Shown: positions 18,672-30,557, counted from the stretch's first letter. The stretch: DNA of 64,000 nt from Myxococcaceae bacterium (GCA_016793095.1 JAEUJQ010000037.1:12244-76243); one strand, 5' to 3'. The notes: generated by a model from the letters alone, not told the origin. Program-made: numbers and translations.

Positions 18672-21272
18672 TCAGCGCACGAAGACGGGAGCGCTCGAGA
18701 ACAGCAGCGGAGGCACGCCGCGCTGCGCCTCGCGGTTGTCGCCCCAGCACCAGAGCGCCCCGTCGGCGAGGAGCGCGCAGGTCGTGCCCTCGCGCGCCAC
18801 CAGCTGCGCGACCCGGCCGGGCAACGCCACGGGCACAGGGAGCGCGCTGTGGCTGCCCTCCCGGCCCAGCTCGTTGAACAGGTTGCTGCCCCAGCAGCTC
18901 ACCCCGTTGGAGCCGACGAGCACGCAGCAGTGCGAGCTGCCGCAGGCGAGGTCACGGGCGAAGGGCAGCACACGCGCCAGCGGGCTCGGCGTCATCGGGC
19001 GGCCCGTCGAGACGTCGAGGCCCCAGCACCACGCCTGGCCGGCGACCAGCGCGCAGGCCTGCACCTGCGACATCGCCACCTTCATAGCGGGGCCCGGGAG
19101 CGGCACGGCGGTCTGGCGGAATCGCTCCGTCGTGTCACCGGTGCCGAGCTGGCCGTAGCGGTTGGTGCCGTCGCACACGACGCCGCCGTCACCCACGACC
19201 GAGCAGCGGGCATCGGCGAACCCGCACGCAGCGGGCGCCTCGGCGAGCGGGTTGCAGGTGACGTCGGCGCCGCTCGGCCGGAACGCACAGGGCACGCCCG
19301 TCCGCGAGAGGCCGGCGACGAAGCCCGACCCGCTCACACACGGCAGGAAGCCGACCAGCGGCGGCACCCCGGCGATGCGATGGAGCGCCCCGTCCCAGCA
19401 ATCGGCGCCGCCGTCGGCCTGCACCACGCAGGTGCCGTCGGGCACCGACGCGACTTCCTTCGCCCCGGCGGCGGGCAGCGGCAGAAAGGCGGGCCGCGCC
19501 ACGCCCGCGCCCCAGGTGACGACGCCCCCGTCGCGCAGGACCCCGACCACGGAGCGCACGCCCAGCCCGAAGGCGAGGCGCTCGAGCCTGAGCCCGGGCA
19601 CCTCGGACGGCGACGGCGGCGCGGGGCTCAGGTCGCCCAGCTCGGCGGACCGGTTCGAGCCGATGCACGCGACCTCGTCGGACGTCGTCAGGAAGCACAC
19701 ATGGTCGGTGCCGCCAGCGGCCTTGCGCACCGGAGGCAACCCCGCGTCGTGGGTGACGCAGCTGAGGCCGCCGTCGCTCTCGAAGGCGCAGCGCAGCACG
19801 CCGCCGTCGCGCAGCACCGGCGTCACGTCACCCCACCGGTACGACACCGCGACGTCGTGGACGGTCGCGGGGAGGCGGACGACCGATGCCGGCGGCGGCC
19901 CGGGTTGACCGGCGCCGTCGGTTCGCGTCATGGCGGCCCAGCAGTCGATGCCGTCATCGAGCAGGGCGCAGGTGCCCCGGTCTCCCCGCCTGAGCGCGCG
20001 CACTGGCGCCCGCAGCGCGAACTCCGCGACGCCGACGAAGCCCGCGTCGCCTGGCGGCAGCACGTCGTTCAGGTACCCCCAGCACGCCACACCGCCGTCG
20101 AGCGCGACGCCGCAGAACGAGTTGTCGTCGGCGGTGAGGGAGGTCAGCGCGAGCCCCGTGACAGAGGGCATCCAGGACTGCACCTGACAGCCGACACCCG
20201 CGTCCACGCCGACCCAACACGCACCCGAGCCGTTGTTGACGACGCTGACGACGGTGCCGGCGTCGCGCGGCGGAGCGCTGCCGTCGCCGCACTGAAACCC
20301 GCCCGCCTCGAGGGCGCTGCACGTCGCGACCCCCATCGAGAGGGTGGAGGCTCTTCCCGCGCGGCGCAGGGTGCCAGGTCGCGAGAAGATGTTCCCCGGC
20401 GTGGCGTGCCCCGAGCCCCAGCACCTCAGCGTGCCGGCCCGGGTCAACATGCAGGTCGAGCCGTAGGACGCCGCGAGATCGACGGGTGTACACTCCTCAA
20501 CGGCACCCGGTCGCTGCCGCACGACGCACTGGCCGTTGATGCACACGCGCGCGTCCCGGCACGTCTCCTCGCCACACGCCGTTCCGTCGTCCACCGGTCG
20601 CGTCTGACAACCCATGGCGGGGTCGCAGAAGGCCACCGTGCATGGGTCGGTCACCGCGCACTCGAGCGCGACGTGCACGCACGCCCCCTCGGCCCCGCAG
20701 GCGTCCACGGTGCACGCGTCGCGATCGTCGCAGGCCGCCGAGACCGCGCCGCGGCACTCACCGCTCACGCAGGTGCCGCTCACGAGGCAGGCGTTGCTGC
20801 AGGCGGTGCCGTCAGCCAGCACCGAGGACACGCACGCGCCGCGCTCGAAGTCGAAGCCGTTCGCCTGGCACGCAGTGGGTGAGGCACAGACGGGCACCTC
20901 GAGGCCGACTCCCGTGAGGGCCACCGTCTGCGACGCCGCGCCAGTCAGCGACACCGCGCCCTCGACTGGCCCCGGCGACGACGGTGCGAAGGCGACAAAG
21001 ACCTCGACCGACTCGCCTCCCCCGACGTCGAGCCCGGCCCCGACCTGGAACGGCGCGGCGGTCGCCAGCGTCACCCGCTTCGACGCGCGCCCGGCGTTGG
21101 TGAGCACGAGGGCCCTGGTCGCGGTCCGGCCGACGTACACCGGTCCGAAGTCCAGGCTCGCCGGCTCGACGCGCACCTCGTCAGAGACGTCCGTCACGTC
21201 GGGCCGCGGGCACCGGCAGCCGGCAACGAGCAGCAGAGCGAGCAGCCACCTCACGGCCGCATGACCCTCCAC
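18672..21272 (-). CDS. large Cys-rich lipoprotein with RCC1/BLIP-II-like repeats
   Basis: Lipobox LLLVAGC, a Cys-rich EGF-like region, then repeated C(W/D)GxNxxGQLG motifs (CDGTNRYGQLG, CWGSNLFNELG). Confidence 0.7.
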   Translation of the reverse strand: MEGHAAVRWLLALLLVAGCRCPRPDVTDVSDEVRVEPASLDFGPVYVGRTATRALVLTNAGRASKRVTLATAAPFQVGAGLDVGGGESVEVFVAFAPSSPGPVEGAVSLTGAASQTVALTGVGLEVPVCASPTACQANGFDFERGACVSSVLADGTACSNACLVSGTCVSGECRGAVSAACDDRDACTVDACGAEGACVHVALECAVTDPCTVAFCDPAMGCQTRPVDDGTACGEETCRDARVCINGQCVVRQRPGAVEECTPVDLAASYGSTCMLTRAGTLRCWGSGHATPGNIFSRPGTLRRAGRASTLSMGVATCSALEAGGFQCGDGSAPPRDAGTVVSVVNNGSGACWVGVDAGVGCQVQSWMPSVTGLALTSLTADDNSFCGVALDGGVACWGYLNDVLPPGDAGFVGVAEFALRAPVRALRRGDRGTCALLDDGIDCWAAMTRTDGAGQPGPPPASVVRLPATVHDVAVSYRWGDVTPVLRDGGVLRCAFESDGGLSCVTHDAGLPPVRKAAGGTDHVCFLTTSDEVACIGSNRSAELGDLSPAPPSPSEVPGLRLERLAFGLGVRSVVGVLRDGGVVTWGAGVARPAFLPLPAAGAKEVASVPDGTCVVQADGGADCWDGALHRIAGVPPLVGFLPCVSGSGFVAGLSRTGVPCAFRPSGADVTCNPLAEAPAACGFADARCSVVGDGGVVCDGTNRYGQLGTGDTTERFRQTAVPLPGPAMKVAMSQVQACALVAGQAWCWGLDVSTGRPMTPSPLARVLPFARDLACGSSHCCVLVGSNGVSCWGSNLFNELGREGSHSALPVPVALPGRVAQLVAREGTTCALLADGALWCWGDNREAQRGVPPLLFSSAPVFVR

Positions 21273-21292: not shown

Positions 21293-22018
21293 TCAGGGCG
21301 TGGGCGCCGCGTCGGCGAACGACCAGCCCGCCTGCACGTAGGCGATGATGGCGGCCGAGATCTCATCGACGCCGTGGCGCGCGTTGTTGAAGACGGCGTC
21401 GTACAGCATCGGCGCGGTCGGGTCGGCCTTCAGCATCGACTTGACGAACTCGTCGCGGCGCTGGCTGTTCGCGCGCACGAACTCCTCGGCGTCAGCGCGA
21501 ACGGGCATCTGCAGGCGCTTCGCGATGCTGTCCACCCGCCAGTCGAAGGGCGCGTCCACCCGGAAGTGGAAGCAGTTCTTCATCGCCTGGCACAGCACGG
21601 CGCCACCGCGGCCGACGATGATGGCGTTGCCGCCGCCGGCGATGGACACGATGTGTCGAGCCATGGCGTCGAAGCCGCGCACCTGCTCGTAGTACTCCTT
21701 CGGCGCGAGGCCGAGGCGCTCGAAGCGGCTCGCGGTGAGCCCGAGGTTCTGCATCACCCGCGCCGAGACGCCCTCTTCCTTCTCGACCGCCTCGAGCAGC
21801 GTCTTGTCGTAGATGTTCCAGGGCTCGCCGCTCGCCTGCTCGAGGGCCAGCTTCACCCGCTCGGCGATGGGGAAGCCCTCGCAGCCGAAGGAGCGCGACA
21901 GCGTGACGGTCGCGCGTGGCTTGACGGTGGTCTCCTGGTGCAGGCGCGACTGAATGTCCTCCCAGGCCTGGAGACGAGGCGCGACGCCGGGGACGAGCAC
22001 GTGGAACGGGCGTGACAT
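21293..22018 (-). CDS. cytidylate-kinase-like family protein
   Basis: RATVTLSRSFGCEGFPIAERV... resembles the P-loop-like cytidylate-kinase-like family. Start taken at the internal Met MSRPFHVL. Confidence 0.55.
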   Translation of the reverse strand: MSRPFHVLVPGVAPRLQAWEDIQSRLHQETTVKPRATVTLSRSFGCEGFPIAERVKLALEQASGEPWNIYDKTLLEAVEKEEGVSARVMQNLGLTASRFERLGLAPKEYYEQVRGFDAMARHIVSIAGGGNAIIVGRGGAVLCQAMKNCFHFRVDAPFDWRVDSIAKRLQMPVRADAEEFVRANSQRRDEFVKSMLKADPTAPMLYDAVFNNARHGVDEISAAIIAYVQAGWSFADAAPTP

Positions 22019-22245
22019 GGCGTTCTCTTCGCCCAACTCGCAGCCGTTCGCCAGCGGGTTTGTGCGCGTTCGGGGCCACGAAGACCTGCGCCCGGGCACC
22101 GAGCCCTCTTGATGCCGTCGGGCCCGGCGGGCGACGGAGATCGAATGAAATGGGCGGTCACGGGTGATCAGCCGCCGGGCGGTTGCGCCGCGAGCCGAAG
22201 GAGTGCTCCGATTCGATGTCAGCCCCACCTGTTAGACGCCTGCGC

Positions 22246-22581: not shown

Positions 22582-24144
22582 TCAGGCCGCCCGCGACTGC
22601 ATCCCCTCACTCGTGGGCAGGCTCTCGAGCGCCGGCACGTGCGGCCACCGGGTGAAGGTCCTCCCGACGAGCGGCGCGACGTGGTGCCCGACGATGTTGG
22701 CGCTCTCGATGATGGTGAGCAGCCCCGAGCCCGGGTGCGTGCCGCCGCCCACCCAGTACAGGCCCTTCACGTGCGGTGACTTCACCTTCGGGCGCAGCGG
22801 TCCCAGCTGCAGCCAGGTGTGCGAGAGGTTGAAGACCGCGCCGCGGAAGACGTTGAACTCGTCGCGCCAGGTCTCGGCGGTGAACGCGCGCTGCTCGACG
22901 ATGTGCTTCGCGACGTCCTTCATGCCCACCTTCTCGAGCCAGCCCGGCACCTTGTTCGTCAGCTCGGCCTCGACACGCTTCCAGTCGTGCGGGCCGCCGG
23001 TGTTCGGCGTGGGCACCAGCACGTACGCGACCGAGTGGCCCTTCGGCGCGCCGGCCGGGTCCGTCACCGTCGGGTTCACCACGTAGAACGGCGGGTCGTC
23101 GAGGTCGGGCTCGCGGTCCTCCAGCGCGGCGCGGTCGGTGCGGCGCGCCGCGTTCGACAGGTAAATGAGGTGGTGCGGCAGCTCGCGGTAGACGGTGTCG
23201 AGCCCCAGGTAGAGCATGAAGGTGCTGCACGAGTACTTCGCCTTGCCGAGGCTCGCGTTCGACAGTCGCGTGCCCTCGCGCCACCGCTCGGGGATGAGGC
23301 GCTGCGCCGCGTACGGCAGGTCGGCGTTCACGACGACGAGGTCGGCCTTCAGCACCTCACCGGACGCGAGCCGCACGCCCTTTGCCTCGCCCTGCTCCAC
23401 CAGCACCTCGTCCACCGGCGACGACATGCGGAAGGTGGCGCCGAGGTCCTCCGCGCAGCGCTTCATCCCCGTCGCGAGCGCGCGGAAACCGCCCATCACG
23501 TGCCACACGCCGAAGGCCAGCTCGAGGAATGGAATGACGCCGAACACGCTCGAGCACGTCGTCGGGTGCAGGCCGAGGTACTTCGACGGGTAGCTGAACG
23601 CGTACGACACGCGGTCGTCGTGGAAGTGCTCGTCGAGGTGCGAATAGAGCGTCTGCCACGGCTTGAACCTGAGCGTCGGCAGCAGGCGCAGCGGGTTGTA
23701 GTAGCCGACGTCGTCGGCCGGGTGCGCCATGAACTTCTCGTAGGCGATGGCGTACTTGTCCTTCGAGAGCTCGAACCACTTCTCGTACGCCGGCACGAGC
23801 GCGGGGTTGAGGCGCGCGAGCTCGGCCTTCATCTTCGCCTGGTCCCAGTGGGTGTCGAGGCGCGAGCCGTCCCAGAAGTGCAGGCGCGTGTTCTCGGGCA
23901 GCCGGACGAGCGTGACGTAGTCTTCGATGCGCTTGCCGGCGCGGCGGAAGACCCCCTCGAGCACCTGCGGGAGCTGCATGATGCTGGGCCCGGTGTCGAC
24001 GGAGTACGCCCCCATCGTGAGGCCCCGCATACGGCCGCCGGGGATGGCCTCCTTCTCCACCACCGTGACGTCGAGCCCCAGGCCCGCGAGGTTGATGGCC
24101 GCCGAGAGTCCTCCCGGGCCGGCTCCGACGATGAGCGCCTTCAT
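22582..24144 (-). CDS. phytoene-desaturase-family FAD-dependent oxidoreductase (CrtI/CrtD-like)
   Basis: N-terminal Rossmann KALIVGAGPGGLSAA..VVEKEAIPGGR. A 520-aa CrtI-family length with a conserved C-terminal GGGTHPGSG. Confidence 0.8.
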   Translation of the reverse strand: MKALIVGAGPGGLSAAINLAGLGLDVTVVEKEAIPGGRMRGLTMGAYSVDTGPSIMQLPQVLEGVFRRAGKRIEDYVTLVRLPENTRLHFWDGSRLDTHWDQAKMKAELARLNPALVPAYEKWFELSKDKYAIAYEKFMAHPADDVGYYNPLRLLPTLRFKPWQTLYSHLDEHFHDDRVSYAFSYPSKYLGLHPTTCSSVFGVIPFLELAFGVWHVMGGFRALATGMKRCAEDLGATFRMSSPVDEVLVEQGEAKGVRLASGEVLKADLVVVNADLPYAAQRLIPERWREGTRLSNASLGKAKYSCSTFMLYLGLDTVYRELPHHLIYLSNAARRTDRAALEDREPDLDDPPFYVVNPTVTDPAGAPKGHSVAYVLVPTPNTGGPHDWKRVEAELTNKVPGWLEKVGMKDVAKHIVEQRAFTAETWRDEFNVFRGAVFNLSHTWLQLGPLRPKVKSPHVKGLYWVGGGTHPGSGLLTIIESANIVGHHVAPLVGRTFTRWPHVPALESLPTSEGMQSRAA

Positions 24145-24196
24145 GACGGGGAGCTAACCGGCGGGAGCGCCCGAATGCACGCCAATGTGTGGCGGC

Positions 24197-24763
24197 TCAG
24201 GCGTCTGCGAGCCGGCGCCGTGACGAGACCGAGCGCCCCAGCGTCGACGCGGTCTGCACCAGGTCGGCTGGCGTGAAGAACGTCGACCGCATCGCCAGCA
24301 GCACCTGCACGACGCGCTGCTCGAGCCCTCGACGATGAATCCGCCGCACCTCGATGGGGATCAGCTCGCTCGTCACCGCTGCCTCGGCAAGCACTGCGTT
24401 CACCAGGTGCGAATGCACGACGTCGTCTTCGAGCGCGGTCGCGAAGTCGGCCATGCGGGCGCTCGTCCACTGCGCCCAGGGCTCGGACACCTTGCCGAAG
24501 TCGAGGGACGCGCGGTGAAGCTGGTCGCTCAGGCTGCGCAGCAGGTCGACACAGACGAGCGCGACGGGACCGTCCTCGGCCTCGAGGCTGGTCTTCACTG
24601 CGTCCTCACCGAGACGGGGCATCGCCTGCTCGAGCGCCTGCTTGAGGGAGTCTCCTGCACGGAGCCGCGCCTCGAGCACCTCACCGAACTCGGGCGGAGG
24701 ACGAACCGCCCGCGGAAGGTCTCGAATCCATTGGGTTACTCTGGCGGCGAGGCCGGGCAGCAT
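24197..24763 (-). CDS. hypothetical protein
   Basis: Clean 188-aa frame between the STAND gene and the crtI-like gene. No domain. Confidence 0.35.
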   Translation of the reverse strand: MLPGLAARVTQWIRDLPRAVRPPPEFGEVLEARLRAGDSLKQALEQAMPRLGEDAVKTSLEAEDGPVALVCVDLLRSLSDQLHRASLDFGKVSEPWAQWTSARMADFATALEDDVVHSHLVNAVLAEAAVTSELIPIEVRRIHRRGLEQRVVQVLLAMRSTFFTPADLVQTASTLGRSVSSRRRLADA

Positions 24764-24824
24764 GCCCTATTCTCCGACGGTGGGAGGTGCGGTGCTGTGG
24801 GTGTTCTGTCAGCCGTCTTGACGA

Positions 24825-27800
24825 TCAGCCGAGCGCTCGCAGCGCGGCCGCCCCGTCGTCCCAGCCGAGGGCTTCGGCGAGCCCGAGGGCAACGGCGGCC
24901 ACCTCGCGGGCCTTCGGATCATTCTGGCGGGCGAGCACCTTCGCGAGCGACGCGAGCTGCCGGGCCTGGAAGAGGAAGTCTCCGCCCGTCTCGGCGGTGA
25001 CGGCGGCCTGGTTGAACCACTGCGCGGCGTCCTGAAAGTTCGACAACTGCATCGACAGGGCGCCGAGGTTGGCCATCACGCGCGCGGCGTACAGGGGGGC
25101 GTGGGCGGCCTTGAAGCGCTCGGCCGCCGAGACGAGCCACGTGCGCGCGCGGGACGGCTGCTGCTGAACGATGAAGAGCGCGCCGATGCGGGCCTCGACA
25201 CGACCGCGGAAGTCCACCTCGCCGAACCAGGGCGCGATGGGCAGGAACGGGTCGGCGGCGGCGAGCGCCTGGTGCCACGCGTCTTGAGCCTTCGCGGCGT
25301 CGTTCCTCGCCTCGAGCGTCTGGGCGAGCGACGCGAGCACCGCGGCGCGAACGGGCGCCGTCTTCGACGACGACAGCGCCTCGGCCAGCGCCTCGGCCAG
25401 CTCGTCGGCCTTCCCTTCCGCCTCGCTCACGCGCACGTGCGCCCACGCGAGCTCGGGCTCGGGCGGAGCCAGGCGCGGCTTCGCGTCGAGGCCCTCGTTC
25501 AGCGCGTGGCGGGCGCCGGCGACGTCACCGAGGGCGAGCCGCGCACAGGCTCCGCGCGCCCACAGCTGCAGCCGTGTCGTCAGCACGGGGCCGGTGTCCC
25601 GCTGAGGGTGACGCCGCAGGACGCGCGCCATCCCTTCCTGCCCGAGCGCGAGCAGCTCGAAGGCGCGGGCCCGCACACCCGCCTCCGCCACCTTCTGGAA
25701 CTGCTGACCGGCGGGCTGGGCGTCACCGGCGCGCTCGAGCGCCTGGGCGAGCCGGAGCGTGAGCGCCGTGGACGCCTGTGGGAGCCCTTGCACGAGCGCC
25801 GCGACCCGGGCCGCGAGCCCTGGCCCCGACAGGCCCAGCGACGCGACGTGCCCCTCGAAGGCCGGCGCCACCACCGCCTTGCCACCGCTGCCGACGAGCA
25901 GCCGCGCGGTGGTCGCGCGCGGCCACAGCTCCTGCGCGATGCCGGGCAGCACCTGCGCCACCGACGAGGGTTCGGCGGCATCACCCAGCATCCACACGGC
26001 CTGCAGCAACCGCCCGCACCGCGCGCCCTCCGCAGCGAGGCGCTCGCTGAGCAGCTCGGCGGGACTGAAGGCCGGTACGGAGCCCTCCAGCGTGAGGGAC
26101 TCGCCCCTGGGACGAACCGCGCCCCGCGCCACCGTCAGCAGCAGCAGGTCGACGACGAGGCCGGGCAGCCCACCGGACCGCTGGAGCAGGAGCTCTCTCA
26201 GCTCCGGCACCGCGACGCCCATGGCCGCCACCAGCAGCGCGTCGACCTCGGTCGCGCCGAACGTGGGGAGCGCGGGGCCGGCCTCGACGCCGAGGTGCGC
26301 GACCTGCTCGGGTGCGGTGAGGCAGACGACGAGCTCCCCGGGCGCCGGCGCGGTGAGCAGCACCTTCACCACCTCCACCGTCTCGGCGTCGGCCTGGTCG
26401 AGGCCGTCGAAGATGAGGACGCGGGGGCGCCGCTGGGTGAGGTCGGCGAGCACCAGGCGCAGCGCGTCCACCACCTGACGGGTGGTGAAGGGCGTGGGCG
26501 CCGGGACGAGCTGCAAGGCAGCCAGCATCGCCTCGCGACGAATGGGCGCGACGCCGGCCGACGTGAGCGCTGGTCCCAGCGCGGCGTGGCGCTCCTCCCA
26601 GCTCACCCGGCAGAGAGAGCACACCAGCTCGGCCAGCGATGAGAGCGGAGCCCGGCTCTTCAGCGACGTGGAGAAGCCGACGAAGGCCTTGCCGTGCGCG
26701 CGGCGGGCGATCTCCTGCGCGAGGTGCGTCCGCCCGGAGCGGCGCGCGCCGGCGAGCACGAGGGGGGCGACCGGCCCGCGTTCGAGCGCCGTGACGCGCA
26801 GCTCGAGGAGCCGCGCGAGCGCGTCGAGCCCGAGCGTGGGCCAGGGCGCGAGGGGCGAGGGGCGGCGCGAGGTGAGCTGCACCTCGTCGCCCACGGGCGC
26901 AGTGGCCAGGAGGTCGCTGATGCCGTGAGCGAGGCTGCGCGTCAGCAGGCACTGGCCCGGCTGCGCCTTGCGGAGCAGCGGCCCGAGCGCGTTCACGCCA
27001 TCGCCTTCGACGGGGGAGTCGGGCTCGGCGCGCAGGCGGCTGCCGACGAACGCGAGCTTGAGCGAGGGCGCGTCGGGGCGGCCGTCGGCGAGCGCTTCGA
27101 CGCGTTCGCGGAGCTCCTGCGCAGCAAGCACGCACGCGCCCTGCGAGCCGAGGCCGAAGAAGACGAAGCGCGCTCCGGTGGGGCTGATGTCGTCGATGAC
27201 GCCGCCGAAGTGAGCGCACACATCGGTGGTGAGCGTGACGATGGTGGACAGGCTCGGCACGTCGGAGGCGCGCACCCACTCGACCCCGAGGAGCCAGGCG
27301 ATGGGCATCGTCGCGGGCAACGCGGCGCGCGTGCGCTCGGCTCTGCCGATGCGCTCCACGGTCAACGGGAAGCCGAGCTTGCTGAGCTGCTCGCCGATGC
27401 GTCCGACGTGTCCGTCCGGGGAAGCGGACGGCGCGAGCCCGGGCGTGAGAGCCGGGGTGGAGCCGGTGCTCCCGGGCGGACGAAGCGTGCTGAGTGACGG
27501 CAGCGCCATCGGCGTTGGTGGAGGCGGAGCCGAGGCGACGGGCGCGGGCGGCGGCGCGGTCACGAGCGGACCGACGGGGTTGCGCGCAGGCCACTCTCGC
27601 GTCGCGATGGACGGCGGTGGTAACGACGGTTGCGCGGCGTCGATGCGCACGCGGTTGGGCGTCACCGTCGAGGGCTGTTGTGGTGTGAGGGACTGCGGCC
27701 TCGCCTCGTCGAGGCGCACCGGCGGGGCGACCGGCGCGGCGTCGATGCGCACGCGGTTGGGCGTCACCGTCGAGGGCTGCTGTGGTGTGAGGGACTGCGG

Positions 27801-28415
27801 CCTCGCCTCGTCGAGGCGCACCGGTGGCGCGACGCCGACGGACTGCGCGGTAGTCGGCGCGACCGGCGCGGCGTCGATGCGCACGCGGTTGGGCGTCACC
27901 GTCGAGGGCTGCTGTGGTGTGAGGGACCGCGGCCTCGCCTCGTCGATGCGCACTCCGCCGGACTGTGCAGGTGACTCCGTCAGGTCCTGCCGCGCGCGTG
28001 TCGGGTCGATGACCGTCTTCATCGGAATGCCGGCGGGCGCGGCGGCCGGATCGGTGCGGGGCTCCTCCTCGAGCGTCGAGGCTGGCGCGCTCGCAGGCGT
28101 GTTCACTGACAGGCGCATCGCGACGAGGACACTCGCCCCCGCCTCGCCGTAGCCGACGCGGATGCCGGCCGTCCCGCTCGCGTCGAGTTCCACGCTCTCC
28201 ACCTCGCAGGGCAGCAGGCGCCGCACCGCGCCGACGATGAGCTCGACCTCGACCGGTTCCCCGATGTCGGGCGTGGTGGGCGTCGCGACGAAGAAGCTGC
28301 GCGTCGCCTGCACCTCGCCCCAGAAGCGGAAGAAGTCGCTCGCCGAGGCGAATCTGAAGGGGAGGGACGCCACCGCGCGGCACCTTGCCACAGCGGGCGG
28401 GACCGGGCGCGCCAC
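24825..28415 (-). CDS. PilZ-domain / cyclase-like / AAA(STAND) NTPase / TPR multidomain signalling protein
   Basis: N-terminal PilZ-like segment (FRFASASDFFRFWGEV). A repeat linker (VRIDEARPQSLTPQQPSTVTPNR x3). A degenerate cyclase-like block. P-loop GARRSGRTHLA with Walker B VLIFDGLD. A long TPR-like C-terminus. Confidence 0.7.
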   Translation of the reverse strand: MARPVPPAVARCRAVASLPFRFASASDFFRFWGEVQATRSFFVATPTTPDIGEPVEVELIVGAVRRLLPCEVESVELDASGTAGIRVGYGEAGASVLVAMRLSVNTPASAPASTLEEEPRTDPAAAPAGIPMKTVIDPTRARQDLTESPAQSGGVRIDEARPRSLTPQQPSTVTPNRVRIDAAPVAPTTAQSVGVAPPVRLDEARPQSLTPQQPSTVTPNRVRIDAAPVAPPVRLDEARPQSLTPQQPSTVTPNRVRIDAAQPSLPPPSIATREWPARNPVGPLVTAPPPAPVASAPPPPTPMALPSLSTLRPPGSTGSTPALTPGLAPSASPDGHVGRIGEQLSKLGFPLTVERIGRAERTRAALPATMPIAWLLGVEWVRASDVPSLSTIVTLTTDVCAHFGGVIDDISPTGARFVFFGLGSQGACVLAAQELRERVEALADGRPDAPSLKLAFVGSRLRAEPDSPVEGDGVNALGPLLRKAQPGQCLLTRSLAHGISDLLATAPVGDEVQLTSRRPSPLAPWPTLGLDALARLLELRVTALERGPVAPLVLAGARRSGRTHLAQEIARRAHGKAFVGFSTSLKSRAPLSSLAELVCSLCRVSWEERHAALGPALTSAGVAPIRREAMLAALQLVPAPTPFTTRQVVDALRLVLADLTQRRPRVLIFDGLDQADAETVEVVKVLLTAPAPGELVVCLTAPEQVAHLGVEAGPALPTFGATEVDALLVAAMGVAVPELRELLLQRSGGLPGLVVDLLLLTVARGAVRPRGESLTLEGSVPAFSPAELLSERLAAEGARCGRLLQAVWMLGDAAEPSSVAQVLPGIAQELWPRATTARLLVGSGGKAVVAPAFEGHVASLGLSGPGLAARVAALVQGLPQASTALTLRLAQALERAGDAQPAGQQFQKVAEAGVRARAFELLALGQEGMARVLRRHPQRDTGPVLTTRLQLWARGACARLALGDVAGARHALNEGLDAKPRLAPPEPELAWAHVRVSEAEGKADELAEALAEALSSSKTAPVRAAVLASLAQTLEARNDAAKAQDAWHQALAAADPFLPIAPWFGEVDFRGRVEARIGALFIVQQQPSRARTWLVSAAERFKAAHAPLYAARVMANLGALSMQLSNFQDAAQWFNQAAVTAETGGDFLFQARQLASLAKVLARQNDPKAREVAAVALGLAEALGWDDGAAALRALG
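27634..27960 (-). repeat. in-frame tandem repeat (102/132 bp x3) encoding the Pro/Gln-rich linker
   Basis: Three near-identical DNA copies begin at 27634, 27736 and 27868. Confidence 0.75.
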
Positions 28416-28465
28416 GTGCGCGATGCTCGATGCTCCCCTCGTGCGGTGGCCCCGAACCCCGTGGA

Positions 28466-28690
28466 GGACTCCGCGCTGGCGAAGCGGCTCGCGGGCGGCC
28501 TCATGCCCGTCGGGCCAGGGCGAGCGCGCCAGGACTCCGCGCTGGCGAAGCGGCTCGCGGGCGGCCTCATGCCCGTAGGGCCAGGGCGAGCGCGCCAGGA
28601 CTCCGCGCTGGCGAAGCGGCTCGCGGGCGGCCTCATGCCCGTCGGCCAGGGCGAGCGCGCCAGGACTCCGCGCTGGCGAAGCGCCGTTCG
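28466..28690. repeat. 66-bp tandem direct repeat x3.3 in a divergent intergenic region
   Basis: The unit ggactccgcgctggcgaagcggctcgcgggcggcctcatgcccgtcgggccagggcgagcgcgcca starts at 28466, 28532 and 28598, with a partial copy at 28664. Confidence 0.8.
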
Positions 28691-28738
28691 GCGGGGGGCA
28701 CTGCGACTGCGGGAGCCTCGAGCGGGTAGGTTCGCCAC

Positions 28739-29050
28739 ATGATGACGCAGACCCTCTTCGAGCGGGCCAGAGCGCTCCAGGCGTCTGGGTTGAGCGCCGA
28801 GTCGCTTCACGCGGCCCTCGTGAAGGAGGGCTACGCCGCAGCAGATGTCGTCGTCATCCTCGGCAGCCTCGGCGCTGGGCCTCAACCCAGACCTGATCCG
28901 ACGGCTGACACTGCTCCGCTCACGGTGGTGAGCCGCATCGCCCGCAGTCGCGTGCTGGTCTGGCTGTTCTTCGTGGCAGTGGCGACGATGTGTGGCGGGG
29001 CGTCATGGGTTGCGTACACGCTGATGGCGGCCTTTCAACGCGGCCGCTGA
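28739..29050 (+). CDS. small hypothetical protein with C-terminal TM segment
   Basis: 103 aa with a C-terminal hydrophobic helix VLVWLFFVAVATM. Confidence 0.35.
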   Translation: MMTQTLFERARALQASGLSAESLHAALVKEGYAAADVVVILGSLGAGPQPRPDPTADTAPLTVVSRIARSRVLVWLFFVAVATMCGGASWVAYTLMAAFQRGR

Positions 29051-29109
29051 GGAGCGGGACGTCTGCACCCTGCGGCTGCCGACTCCCTCGTCTCCAGGGA
29101 GGCCCTCGG

Positions 29110-30249
29110 TCACGGTTCGGCATCGACGCGGGTCTCGACCACGTCTTGCACCGCGCGAGGGACGTCAGAGAGGAAGTCGAGCCCCGTCGCCTGCTCGACG
29201 GAGCGGACCGAGACGCGGAACGCCCGCCAGCTCCCGCTGACCGAGGCGGTGTTGGGCACCACCACCGCGATGACGCGAGTCGAGGTGGTGACCGATGGCG
29301 CCGCTCCCACCTGCCCATCGACGATGACCGCGACCTTGAAGGTCGAGGTCGGCACCGGCACACCCGCTCCGATGGACTGCGGGGTGACGCCGAAGAGCGG
29401 CCCAGCGACGAGAAAGACCGTCTTCCCCAGGCGCGCCTGCGCTCGCGCTTCGTCCTCCAGCGTCGCCCAGGTGCCACCGTTGCTGGCGCGGGTCTGCGGC
29501 ACGACGTTGGTGAAGACGAAGGTGGCGTCGTTGTCGGGGTCGGTGTTGGTGCGGTCGGCGCTGGGGCAGAGGTGGCCGCGCTCGAAGCCGCTGTTGCGGA
29601 AGTCCTCGTCGCGGGCCTGCCCGGCGCTGAGCGGAAGCTGGGCATCGCGGCGGAAGCTCGTCGCGCGCGTCGCAGTCCCGAGCCACGTCGTGTCGAGGCG
29701 CCACGACACCCAGCGCGGCGTCTTGCGGACCGTGTCGTAGGAGACGACGAACTGCGGCTTCACGAGGAGCCAGCGGTCGAGCGCGCCCACCGCGGACGTA
29801 TCGGGGAGGCCGAGGGCGGTGTGGGCGCTGAGGGTGGCTCCAGGGCCGGGCGCAGCCGGCGCGACGACGCCCCCATCGGGCTCGCGGCCCGCATCGGCTC
29901 CGGCGAGCGCCGCGCCCGCGTCGACGGGCCTGCCGGCGTCTGCAGGCGCGGTTTGACCTGCATCGACTGTGAGGCCTGGGGTGCCTGCGTCGGTCGGCGT
30001 GTCGGCCCCCGCGTCGGCGGCGAGCTGCGACGGCGCTCCAGCGTCGTGCACCGGCGAGGGTCCGGCGTCGGCGGGCGCGAGGGGACTGGCGTGTCCTGCG
30101 TCGAACGCATCGACCCGGCGGCCGCTGGTCGAGGTCGCGCGAGGCTCGTCGTCCACGCGAACGACCGCGTCGACGTCATCGACGCCACACGACCACCACG
30201 ACGCACATGTGAGGAGCAGGGCGATGAGACGCCGCGGGAAGGACGGCAC
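29110..30249 (-). CDS. secreted DNA/RNA non-specific endonuclease (NUC / beta-beta-alpha-Me family) lipoprotein
   Basis: Lipobox LLTCASWWSCG and a low-complexity (DAG/PAD) linker. Catalytic motif FERGHLCP with downstream N...FVFTNVVPQ. Confidence 0.8.
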   Translation of the reverse strand: MPSFPRRLIALLLTCASWWSCGVDDVDAVVRVDDEPRATSTSGRRVDAFDAGHASPLAPADAGPSPVHDAGAPSQLAADAGADTPTDAGTPGLTVDAGQTAPADAGRPVDAGAALAGADAGREPDGGVVAPAAPGPGATLSAHTALGLPDTSAVGALDRWLLVKPQFVVSYDTVRKTPRWVSWRLDTTWLGTATRATSFRRDAQLPLSAGQARDEDFRNSGFERGHLCPSADRTNTDPDNDATFVFTNVVPQTRASNGGTWATLEDEARAQARLGKTVFLVAGPLFGVTPQSIGAGVPVPTSTFKVAVIVDGQVGAAPSVTTSTRVIAVVVPNTASVSGSWRAFRVSVRSVEQATGLDFLSDVPRAVQDVVETRVDAEP

Positions 30250-30557
30250 GCCTTCAGGCAGAGCACCCCCTGTGCCCGGGGAAGGGCCGCCGAATCACGG
30301 CGATCGCGACGAGTCAGCCTCACGCTCCGGGTCGCGATGACCCTGTGCGCCTTCTGGAGAGGTTTCCCCGCCCTGGACCGCGGAGCGGCGAGCTCGATGA
30401 CCCACGAGGGCGCGGTGGTGGTCATCGGCCTGTGGTCGAACGCCGGCCGAGGTGCCGTTCACGGACAAGACGCACGACGCGGCGACGGCTGGCGAGTACG
30501 AGGTCCACCGAACGGCGCTCGGCGAGCGGGCGCCCAGGTGTCGAGGAGGTGTTGCGC

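Follow-up and report, generated by a model that had tools for sequence, protein, structure and literature searches.

What would a large signaling protein do if the nucleotide-handling modules from which it is built appear to have kept their folds and parted with the residues that make such modules work? A gene on the (-) strand of a 64,000-nucleotide stretch of DNA from a Myxococcaceae bacterium (GCA_016793095.1 JAEUJQ010000037.1:12244-76243; hereafter the window) raises this question. A preliminary description of the gene had proposed a PilZ-like segment, a repeat linker, a degenerate nucleotidyl-cyclase-like block, a STAND-type NTPase and a tetratricopeptide repeat (TPR) array, in that order, and at the level of fold this order is correct. 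As judged from sequence profiles and predicted structures, the PilZ-like, cyclase-like and ATPase-like modules retain their folds, and their key ligand-binding or catalytic residues are replaced family-wide. Because key residues appear to be lost in all three modules, the protein is most likely a protein-binding scaffold, not a c-di-GMP receptor, an enzyme or a phage sensor. We give a probability of roughly 0.55 to the reading that it is a cytoplasmic, largely non-catalytic signaling scaffold belonging to the cyclase/kinase-AAA_16-TPR branch of STAND proteins.

That the open reading frame (ORF) is a real, conserved gene is confirmed. It comprises 1196 codons from a GTG at 28415 to a stop at 24825 (24825..28415, (-); residue numbers below count from this GTG), and its GC content at the first, second and third codon positions (GC1/2/3 = 0.77/0.56/0.91) follows the usual pattern of genes in the window, whose GC is 72% overall and stays at 66-75% throughout. 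A deposited protein of 1182 amino acids (P0001, 'MAG: AAA family ATPase [Myxococcaceae bacterium]') is identical to the translation from codon 15 on (99% of the ORF). Because this protein and the other full-length homologues begin at codon 15, with 'MASLPFRF' in the target and 'MAS(L/F)..(R/K)F' overall, the likely gene is 24825..28373 ((-), stop codon included), starting with the GTG at 28373; the first in-frame GTG at 28415 would add 14 residues that are present in no homologue. The ORF as first described therefore stands, supported by its GC3 of 0.91 and its homologues, but the likely protein is 1182 amino acids long and not 1196. We identified 15 homologues with 46-100% identity, the closest non-identical ones at 66-67%, all from Myxococcaceae or Myxococcales metagenome bins and all with AAA_16 as a precomputed Pfam domain. 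A pattern scan of 185,579 GTDB species genomes gave 15 loci, every one in a Myxococcota metagenome-assembled genome (MAG) and 0 in cultured isolates; the gene is confined to a group of Myxococcaceae not yet in culture. No second copy was found within the window, and Rfam and promoter/terminator scans (24000-30400 and 24000-29300) gave nothing useful, the lone terminator-like site lying inside the coding region at chance level.

The N-terminal domain (residues 15-104; 28104..28373, (-)) is delimited by profile comparison and predicted structure, both of which point to a divergent PilZ fold of the xPilZ type. Pfam reports no PilZ match in the full protein or in its excised 122 residues, even at E 10, and word-indexed homologue searches with the PilZ-like and cyclase-like alignments returned one fragment and nothing, respectively; the link to PilZ came from an exhaustive search of representative sequences. 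When a profile built from six family N-termini only was run against 1.84 billion proteins, its matches outside the family were P0024 (E 2.1e-7) and P0025 (E 1e-5). Pfam calls PilZ strongly in both (E 3.6e-35 and 6.4e-20), and it is within these PilZ domains that the profile matches them. Alignment of the N-terminal family profile with four canonical PilZ domains by hhalign gave a probability of 98% and an E value of 1.8e-13 over 87 columns. The AlphaFold2 model of the N-terminus has a mean pLDDT of 93.9 and shows five strands and two helices, one following strand 1 and the other C-terminal, and its best Foldseek matches in the PDB are PilZ proteins, the XAC1133 class (3cnr) being closest by a wide margin; by sequence, the domain is nearer to canonical myxobacterial PilZ domains than to the XAC1133 type. 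The input alignment of this model held four canonical PilZ sequences, so that some bias of the fold is possible, and the profile evidence is independent of it. The predicted structure and the profiles agree in assigning the segment to the PilZ fold, as had been anticipated, in a divergent form without the c-di-GMP motifs. A 251-amino-acid protein from the representative search, P0027, carries nearly the same first ~66 residues as the PilZ-like N-terminus of P0015, one of the kinase-bearing paralogues described below, followed by a T2SSE (PilB-type secretion ATPase) domain; it may be a chimeric assembly or else a genuine fusion of this PilZ-like domain to a pilus-type ATPase, and the latter would echo the XAC1133-PilB interaction.

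The preliminary description had placed this segment in the family of receptors for cyclic di-GMP (c-di-GMP). On such a reading the PilZ domain would bind c-di-GMP and gate the NTPase/TPR module, making the protein a c-di-GMP-controlled STAND hub; homology of the N-terminus to PilZ domains with full binding motifs is in keeping with this, as are the many PilZ proteins that Myxococcus uses in motility and development (PMC8316039). The binding motifs themselves, however, are missing. Canonical PilZ relatives have 'RRxxxR' ahead of strand 1 together with '(N/D)(L/I)SxGG', but the members of this family start only 4-5 residues before strand 1 (five in the target), the RxxxR loop is absent, and the hhalign match to canonical PilZ begins downstream of it. 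The (D/N)xSxxG site reads VQATRS in the target, with 0/3 signature residues kept. With the best structural match being to the non-binding XAC1133 class (10.1101/814665), and with Pfam blind to the domain, a role as c-di-GMP receptor is not supported and is contradicted by direct test, and we hold a c-di-GMP-controlled hub to be very improbable indeed. The PilZ-like domain of the kinase-bearing paralogues keeps slightly more of the canonical motif ('RRVGH', 'SLHLG'), which fits descent from canonical PilZ.

The second module follows the linker and is predicted to have a class III nucleotidyl-cyclase fold (residues 333-492; 26940..27419, (-)). It gives no Pfam match at E 10, and its best PDB match to a cyclase by sequence, Cya2 (2w01), is non-significant (E 0.71), resting on a partial HMMER alignment. 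An AlphaFold2 model built from ten family sequences has a pLDDT of 75 overall and 85-93 in the core, with elements in the order beta-alpha-beta-beta-alpha-beta, and in a Foldseek search of the PDB class III cyclases (adenylyl, guanylyl or uridylyl) make up 50/50 of the top matches (E 4e-8 to 2e-6, probability 1.0). The position of the metal-binding Asp on strand 1 reads GVEW in the target, and this Glu is unconserved, being replaced in GVTW of P0010 and AAAW of P0021. The 'GD' ahead of strand 3 is replaced in every member by '(T/S)(G/S)A', which has no acidic residue ('TGA' in the target). The register of the metal-binding Asp positions comes from the partial alignment to Cya2 together with the strand and fold pattern, not from a full structural superposition. 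Because neither site has a conserved acidic residue, the domain is probably a pseudo-cyclase (pseudo-cyclase-homology domain), in agreement with its earlier description as degenerate.

The third module is an AAA_16 (STAND-type) P-loop NTPase domain (PF13191; residues 542-696; 26328..26792, (-)), called at E 2.9e-8 with 34.8 bits, just above the cutoff of 32.6. Pfam and NCBIfam searches of the whole protein and of excised segments recovered only this domain and weak TPR matches, so that of the families named in the preliminary description AAA_16 and, weakly, TPR were detected, but PilZ and Guanylate_cyc were not. PDB sequence and profile searches with the PilZ block, the cyclase block, the NTPase-TPR part and the full family profile gave no significant match. 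Both motif strings first reported for this domain are present, but it had gone unnoticed that the Walker A motif, GARRSGRT (residues 556-563; 26727..26750, (-)), has Arg at the canonical Lys position. GxxxxGR[ST] occurs in 21/21 relatives, including the kinase-bearing paralogues and a 30%-identical locus, and 18/21 share G-x-R-R-x-G-R-[ST], the exceptions being L012 and P0023 (GPRLSGR[ST]) and L014 (GAPGSGRS). The Walker B motif, VLIFDGLDQAD (26388..26420, (-); VLIFDGLD is residues 666-673), takes the form hhhhD(G/A)LD in 20/20 relatives with a detectable motif, none having been found in L014. Its Asp is kept and followed by Gly (by Ala in some kinase paralogues), never by an acidic residue, and another Asp stands two residues on. 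That the deviant residues of both motifs are invariant across relatives with identities down to 38% suggests selection for an altered site, not decay. About 75 residues past Walker B lies 'SGGLPG' (26160..26177, (-)), a GxP-type motif in which G748, P750 and G751 are invariant in the family; by analogy with NB-ARC and MalT-type STAND proteins, we take its position to be that of the GLPL/GxP motif of STAND helical domains.

These same data carry the main rival to the scaffold model, namely that the protein is a functional, if slow, nucleotide switch. The Arg-type P-loop would bind and slowly hydrolyze ATP or another NTP, a ligand of the TPR region would drive MalT-like ATP-dependent oligomerization, and the PilZ-like and cyclase-like domains would serve as outputs. 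The above-cutoff AAA_16 match is in its favor, and so are the invariant Gly residues of Walker A, the Ser/Thr that follows its Arg, the Asp of Walker B and the GxP motif, which together look like a maintained pocket and not a decayed one; the known logic of STAND proteins (PMC4381067) would accommodate it. Every relative with a detectable Walker B motif, however, has Gly or Ala in place of the acidic residue after the Asp. Substitution of the Walker A Lys by Arg is, moreover, the standard, classical way to inactivate P-loop NTPases. This Lys is regarded as strictly conserved across P-loop NTPases (10.1101/2022.06.23.497301). We therefore consider a working switch possible but doubtful.

From residue 701 to 1196 (24828..26315, (-)) the protein is presumed to form a helical arm and sensor region with TPR units. 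TPR matches in the target are sub-threshold (TPR_2, E 0.0054; TPR_12, E 0.014) and lie at residues 1076-1138; in the kinase paralogues TPR_12 is significant (E ~1e-12) at a corresponding distance from the C-terminus, so the long TPR array originally described is borne out in part. No domain is better conserved than the extreme C-terminal block, with 43-80% identity compared with 34-48% for the PilZ-like domain.

Between the PilZ-like and cyclase-like domains lies a Pro/Ala/Thr/Ser-rich linker that is presumably disordered (residues 105-332; 27420..28103, (-)). It contains a fast-evolving set of three tandem units of the form 'VR(I/L)DEARP..LTPQQPSTVTPNRVRIDAA..' (residues 155-198, 199-232 and 233-262; 27630..27953, (-)), which share the pattern 'VR(I/L)DEARP(R/Q)SLTPQQPSTVTPNRVRIDAA..' from residues 155, 199 and 233 on; a 10-residue insertion, TTAQSVGVAP, is found in the first. 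The second and third are recovered by the tandem-repeat finder TRF as 2.0 copies of 102 bp with 97% match (27632..27833). The triplication and the Pro richness of the linker (22% Pro) are thus as reported, but Gln, which had been named alongside Pro, falls outside the six commonest residues. Two short segments are conserved: 'EEP(T/R)T(N/D)P' right after the PilZ helix and 'GPL(V/I)TAPPP' ahead of the cyclase-like domain ('GPLVTAPPP' in the target). Orthologues share a core '(L/V)RIDAA(K/R)P..(S/T)P.QPS..TP' in widely differing copy number, with ~10 copies, counted from sequence, in L005. In L001 (L001:8300-9650, approximate) at least three types of repeat unit are expanded, and in L006 (L006:3830-4830, approximate) a different repeat is expanded, with an 'GPGAHRSDAGAAGQRAAFAHGDAARPS' unit. 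The expansion of different repeats in different orthologues suggests that the tether is a hotspot of independent tandem duplication in which the two flanking motifs stay fixed.

The nearest context for this tether is provided by a set of paralogues from the same lineage (P0015, P0018, P0023 and loci L007-L009, L012 and L015) with the order PilZ-like, Ser/Thr kinase, cyclase-like, AAA_16 and TPR. Their intact Pkinase domain (E ~1e-47) sits exactly at the position of the tandem repeats of the target, and the Pro-rich segment ahead of the cyclase-like domain aligns between the two forms. Identity to the target is 43-44% in the PilZ-like domain of P0015, P0018 and L007-L009 and 34-41% in that of P0023 and L012, 43-51% in the cyclase-like domain and 47-58% in the C-terminal TPR block, and the Arg-type Walker A and D[G/A]LD Walker B are shared. 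The paralogues differ from the target in carrying Pkinase instead of the repeats and in having no adjoining gene for the 188-amino-acid protein that lies beside the target (see below). Two MAGs have one gene of each form (L001 with L015, and L004 with L009).

With a kinase-bearing sister form in view, the altered modules could also be imagined as repurposed and not merely disarmed. The Arg-rich P-loop (G-x-R-R-x-G-R-[ST]) and the pocket of the cyclase-like domain, without its metals, would then serve as receptors for some nucleotide second messenger or other polyanion, and the target, paired with the kinase paralogue through cyclase-like heterodimers, would form a new kind of ligand-gated STAND protein that controls Ser/Thr phosphorylation, the TP-rich repeats serving as a multi-site phospho-acceptor or docking array. 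We think this unlikely.

Set against known systems, the backbone of the protein, a cyclase or kinase head followed by an AAA_16 nucleotide-binding oligomerization domain (NOD) and a TPR sensor, is a known class. Its representative Rv0386 of M. tuberculosis consists of a class III adenylyl cyclase, a MalT-like ATPase, TPR units and a LuxR-type helix-turn-helix (HTH) domain (10.1101/2024.03.06.583649). As in proteins of the Rv0386 type, the cyclase-homology domain of the target lies directly N-terminal to an AAA_16/MalT-type NTPase, which TPR units follow. In Rv0386, however, the cyclase is active, Walker A is the canonical GxxxxGK[ST] and the protein ends in a DNA-binding domain, whereas the target appears to have lost the metal-binding Asp, has Arg in Walker A and no HTH, and has gained a PilZ-fold domain and a repeat linker. 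More generally, STAND regulators follow a sensor-arm-NOD-effector logic, as in MalT (PMC4381067), and the target would share with MalT and with the Avs antiphage proteins the succession of NOD, arm and repeat sensor as well as accessory N-terminal domains. Those proteins have canonical Walker motifs and a defined output (the HTH in MalT; a nuclease, protease or similar in Avs), unlike the target, which has neither and matches no PADLOC model.

For the added N-terminal domain the closest parallels are XAC1133, XC1028 and PA2960, 'divergent' PilZ proteins without c-di-GMP motifs that act by binding FimX and PilB (10.1101/814665), XAC1133 being purely an adaptor between proteins. The resemblance lies in a PilZ-like fold without either motif, 3cnr being closest in structure to the domain of the target. 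Those proteins of type IV pilus biogenesis are, however, stand-alone, ~115 amino acids long and gammaproteobacterial, with 17-21% identity to the target domain over full-length alignments, whereas here the domain is fused to a 1100-amino-acid STAND protein. The XAC1133/PA2960 type is marked by binding to the PilB N-terminus and to the EAL domain of FimX; no pilB or fimX gene adjoins the locus. Within the same bacterial family, Pkn1 of M. xanthus, described as a Ser/Thr kinase with a PilZ domain predicted not to bind c-di-GMP (PMC8316039), is a precedent for the fusion of a motif-poor PilZ domain to eukaryotic-like kinase signaling; we liken the two by description only, and that description covers a kinase and a PilZ domain, with no mention of NTPase, cyclase-like or TPR parts. 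Among the open-access papers that could be searched, we came across none that describes a STAND protein with a PilZ-type domain, and none that reports a naturally occurring Arg-type Walker A within the cyclase/kinase-AAA_16-TPR class. The earlier remark that no PilZ-STAND fusion had been described thus stands, if weakly, but the cyclase-ATPase-TPR backbone and PilZ-kinase fusions are both known. What is particular here is the addition of an XAC1133-like PilZ-fold domain and the family-wide replacement of key residues in all three nucleotide-handling modules.

The surroundings of the gene bear on its possible partners. An ORF of 188 amino acids, to which no family was assigned, begins 61 nt past the stop (24197..24763, (-)), and beyond it lie an FAD (flavin adenine dinucleotide) amine-oxidase/CrtI-like gene (22582..24144, (-)), a cytidylate-kinase-like gene (21293..22228, (-)) and the gene of an 866-amino-acid RCC1-repeat protein (18672..21272, (-)); the same-strand placement of the first two had been noted in the preliminary description and is borne out. 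Near the orthologue, the 188-amino-acid gene is kept in 7/15 of the GTDB loci, being immediately downstream in L003, L006, L010 and L011, and it does not adjoin the kinase paralogues. In L003, L006 and L010 the other neighbours are unlike those of the window, with no CrtI-like gene, and this gene is still kept. For the 188-amino-acid protein the match to PDB 2z99, which we take to be the tandem winged-helix protein ScpB of M. tuberculosis, is borderline (E 9e-4 for the sequence by itself, 0.02 for the family profile), and 4/8 orthologues give sub-threshold TIR_2 matches (best E 0.0085); we find both unconvincing. On the upstream side, a 736-bp gap (28374..29109) separates the target from a gene for a DNA/RNA non-specific endonuclease (Endonuclease_NS, E 1.5e-46; 29110..30249, (-)), which has no PADLOC match; L010 contains a 64%-identical homologue of it, oppositely oriented and ~6 kb away from the orthologue.

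It is here that an Avs- or NLR-like antiphage role, suggested in the preliminary description, can be weighed. The TPR region would recognize a phage protein, and the 188-amino-acid neighbour or the nearby endonuclease would act as a separate effector. A STAND NTPase joined to TPR units is the expected architecture for such a sensor, and both the conserved small neighbour with its sub-threshold TIR_2 matches and the upstream Endonuclease_NS gene could be read in the same sense. PADLOC, however, has no Avs or other defense model for the target, giving only a weak generic TPR match (E 0.0018), and none for the 188-amino-acid ORF or the nuclease. Pfam finds no effector domain fused to the target, and the profile of the 188-amino-acid family finds no TIR structure in the PDB. 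Comparison of orthologous neighbourhoods, which the preliminary description had proposed as a check, revealed mostly metabolic or transport-type genes (among them an acyltransferase, an ABC ATPase, an amidase, a folate enzyme, a GH44 hydrolase and a TonB-like protein), and no mobile-element or defense genes were seen near the gene in the window or the related loci. Moreover, the Walker motifs are non-canonical in every relative, and the nearest relatives are Ser/Thr-kinase signaling proteins. The Avs idea was rejected as contradicted by direct test, and an antiphage sensor seems to us highly improbable.

Several other features of the region deserve mention in their own right. The upstream gap holds a 66-bp unit repeated 3.3 times with 98% match (28465..28683), 92 bp upstream of the likely start; the codon-position GC of the ORFs overlapping it is not coding-like, and the repeat occurs in no related locus. 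Also in the gap is a 103-amino-acid ORF (28739..29050, (+)) divergent from the target gene, with a hydrophobic C-terminal stretch that may be a membrane anchor; it has no Pfam family, a GC3 of only 0.78 and no homologue in related loci. The 866-amino-acid protein (18672..21272, (-)) combines RCC1 repeats, a Dictyostelium-type CTDC repeat and an ASH/Cep192-like Ig domain, which gives it a eukaryotic flavor.

Taken as a scaffold, the protein might work as follows, though everything in this model beyond the state of folds and motifs is inferred. The TPR/arm region would bind a cue, either a protein or a small molecule. Nucleotide binding may persist in the NOD, with poor hydrolysis or none, and together with the cyclase-like domain, which belongs to a fold family of obligate dimerizers, the NOD would keep the protein dimeric or oligomeric. 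Partners would be recruited by the xPilZ domain and by the multivalent Ser/Thr-Pro-rich repeats, both on a flexible tether. Candidate partners are the conserved 188-amino-acid neighbour and the paralogous kinase; the target could be a substrate or a decoy of this kinase or, via the cyclase-like domains, its heterodimer partner.

We acknowledge that several points weigh against this model. Loss of function is read from motifs alone, and the Arg in Walker A could still allow nucleotide binding and a slow switch. The alignment behind the PilZ model included canonical PilZ sequences; the cyclase-like model is of only moderate confidence (pLDDT 75), and its catalytic residues were located by means of a partial alignment together with the fold pattern. 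What ties the protein to the kinase paralogues is shared ancestry and co-occurrence in two incomplete MAGs, and synteny with the 188-amino-acid gene could partly reflect relatedness among the loci. The family, finally, is known solely as sequence and has no cultured host.

In bacteria whose life cycles are complex, multidomain STAND proteins with cyclase or kinase heads are common and have received very little study. The practical value of the present family is limited by its lack of a cultured host, and nothing in it overturns current understanding. It also carries a warning for annotation, in that 'PilZ' here does not equate to a c-di-GMP receptor, nor 'STAND + TPR' to an antiphage Avs protein. 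The family nonetheless offers a clean natural case in which the PilZ, class III cyclase and P-loop NOD folds appear to be under selection with their textbook residues replaced. If the scaffold reading is true, it would show how pseudo-enzymes assemble into bacterial signaling hubs, and the two forms of the protein, with and without a kinase, would be a matched pair for testing how such hubs regulate Ser/Thr kinases.

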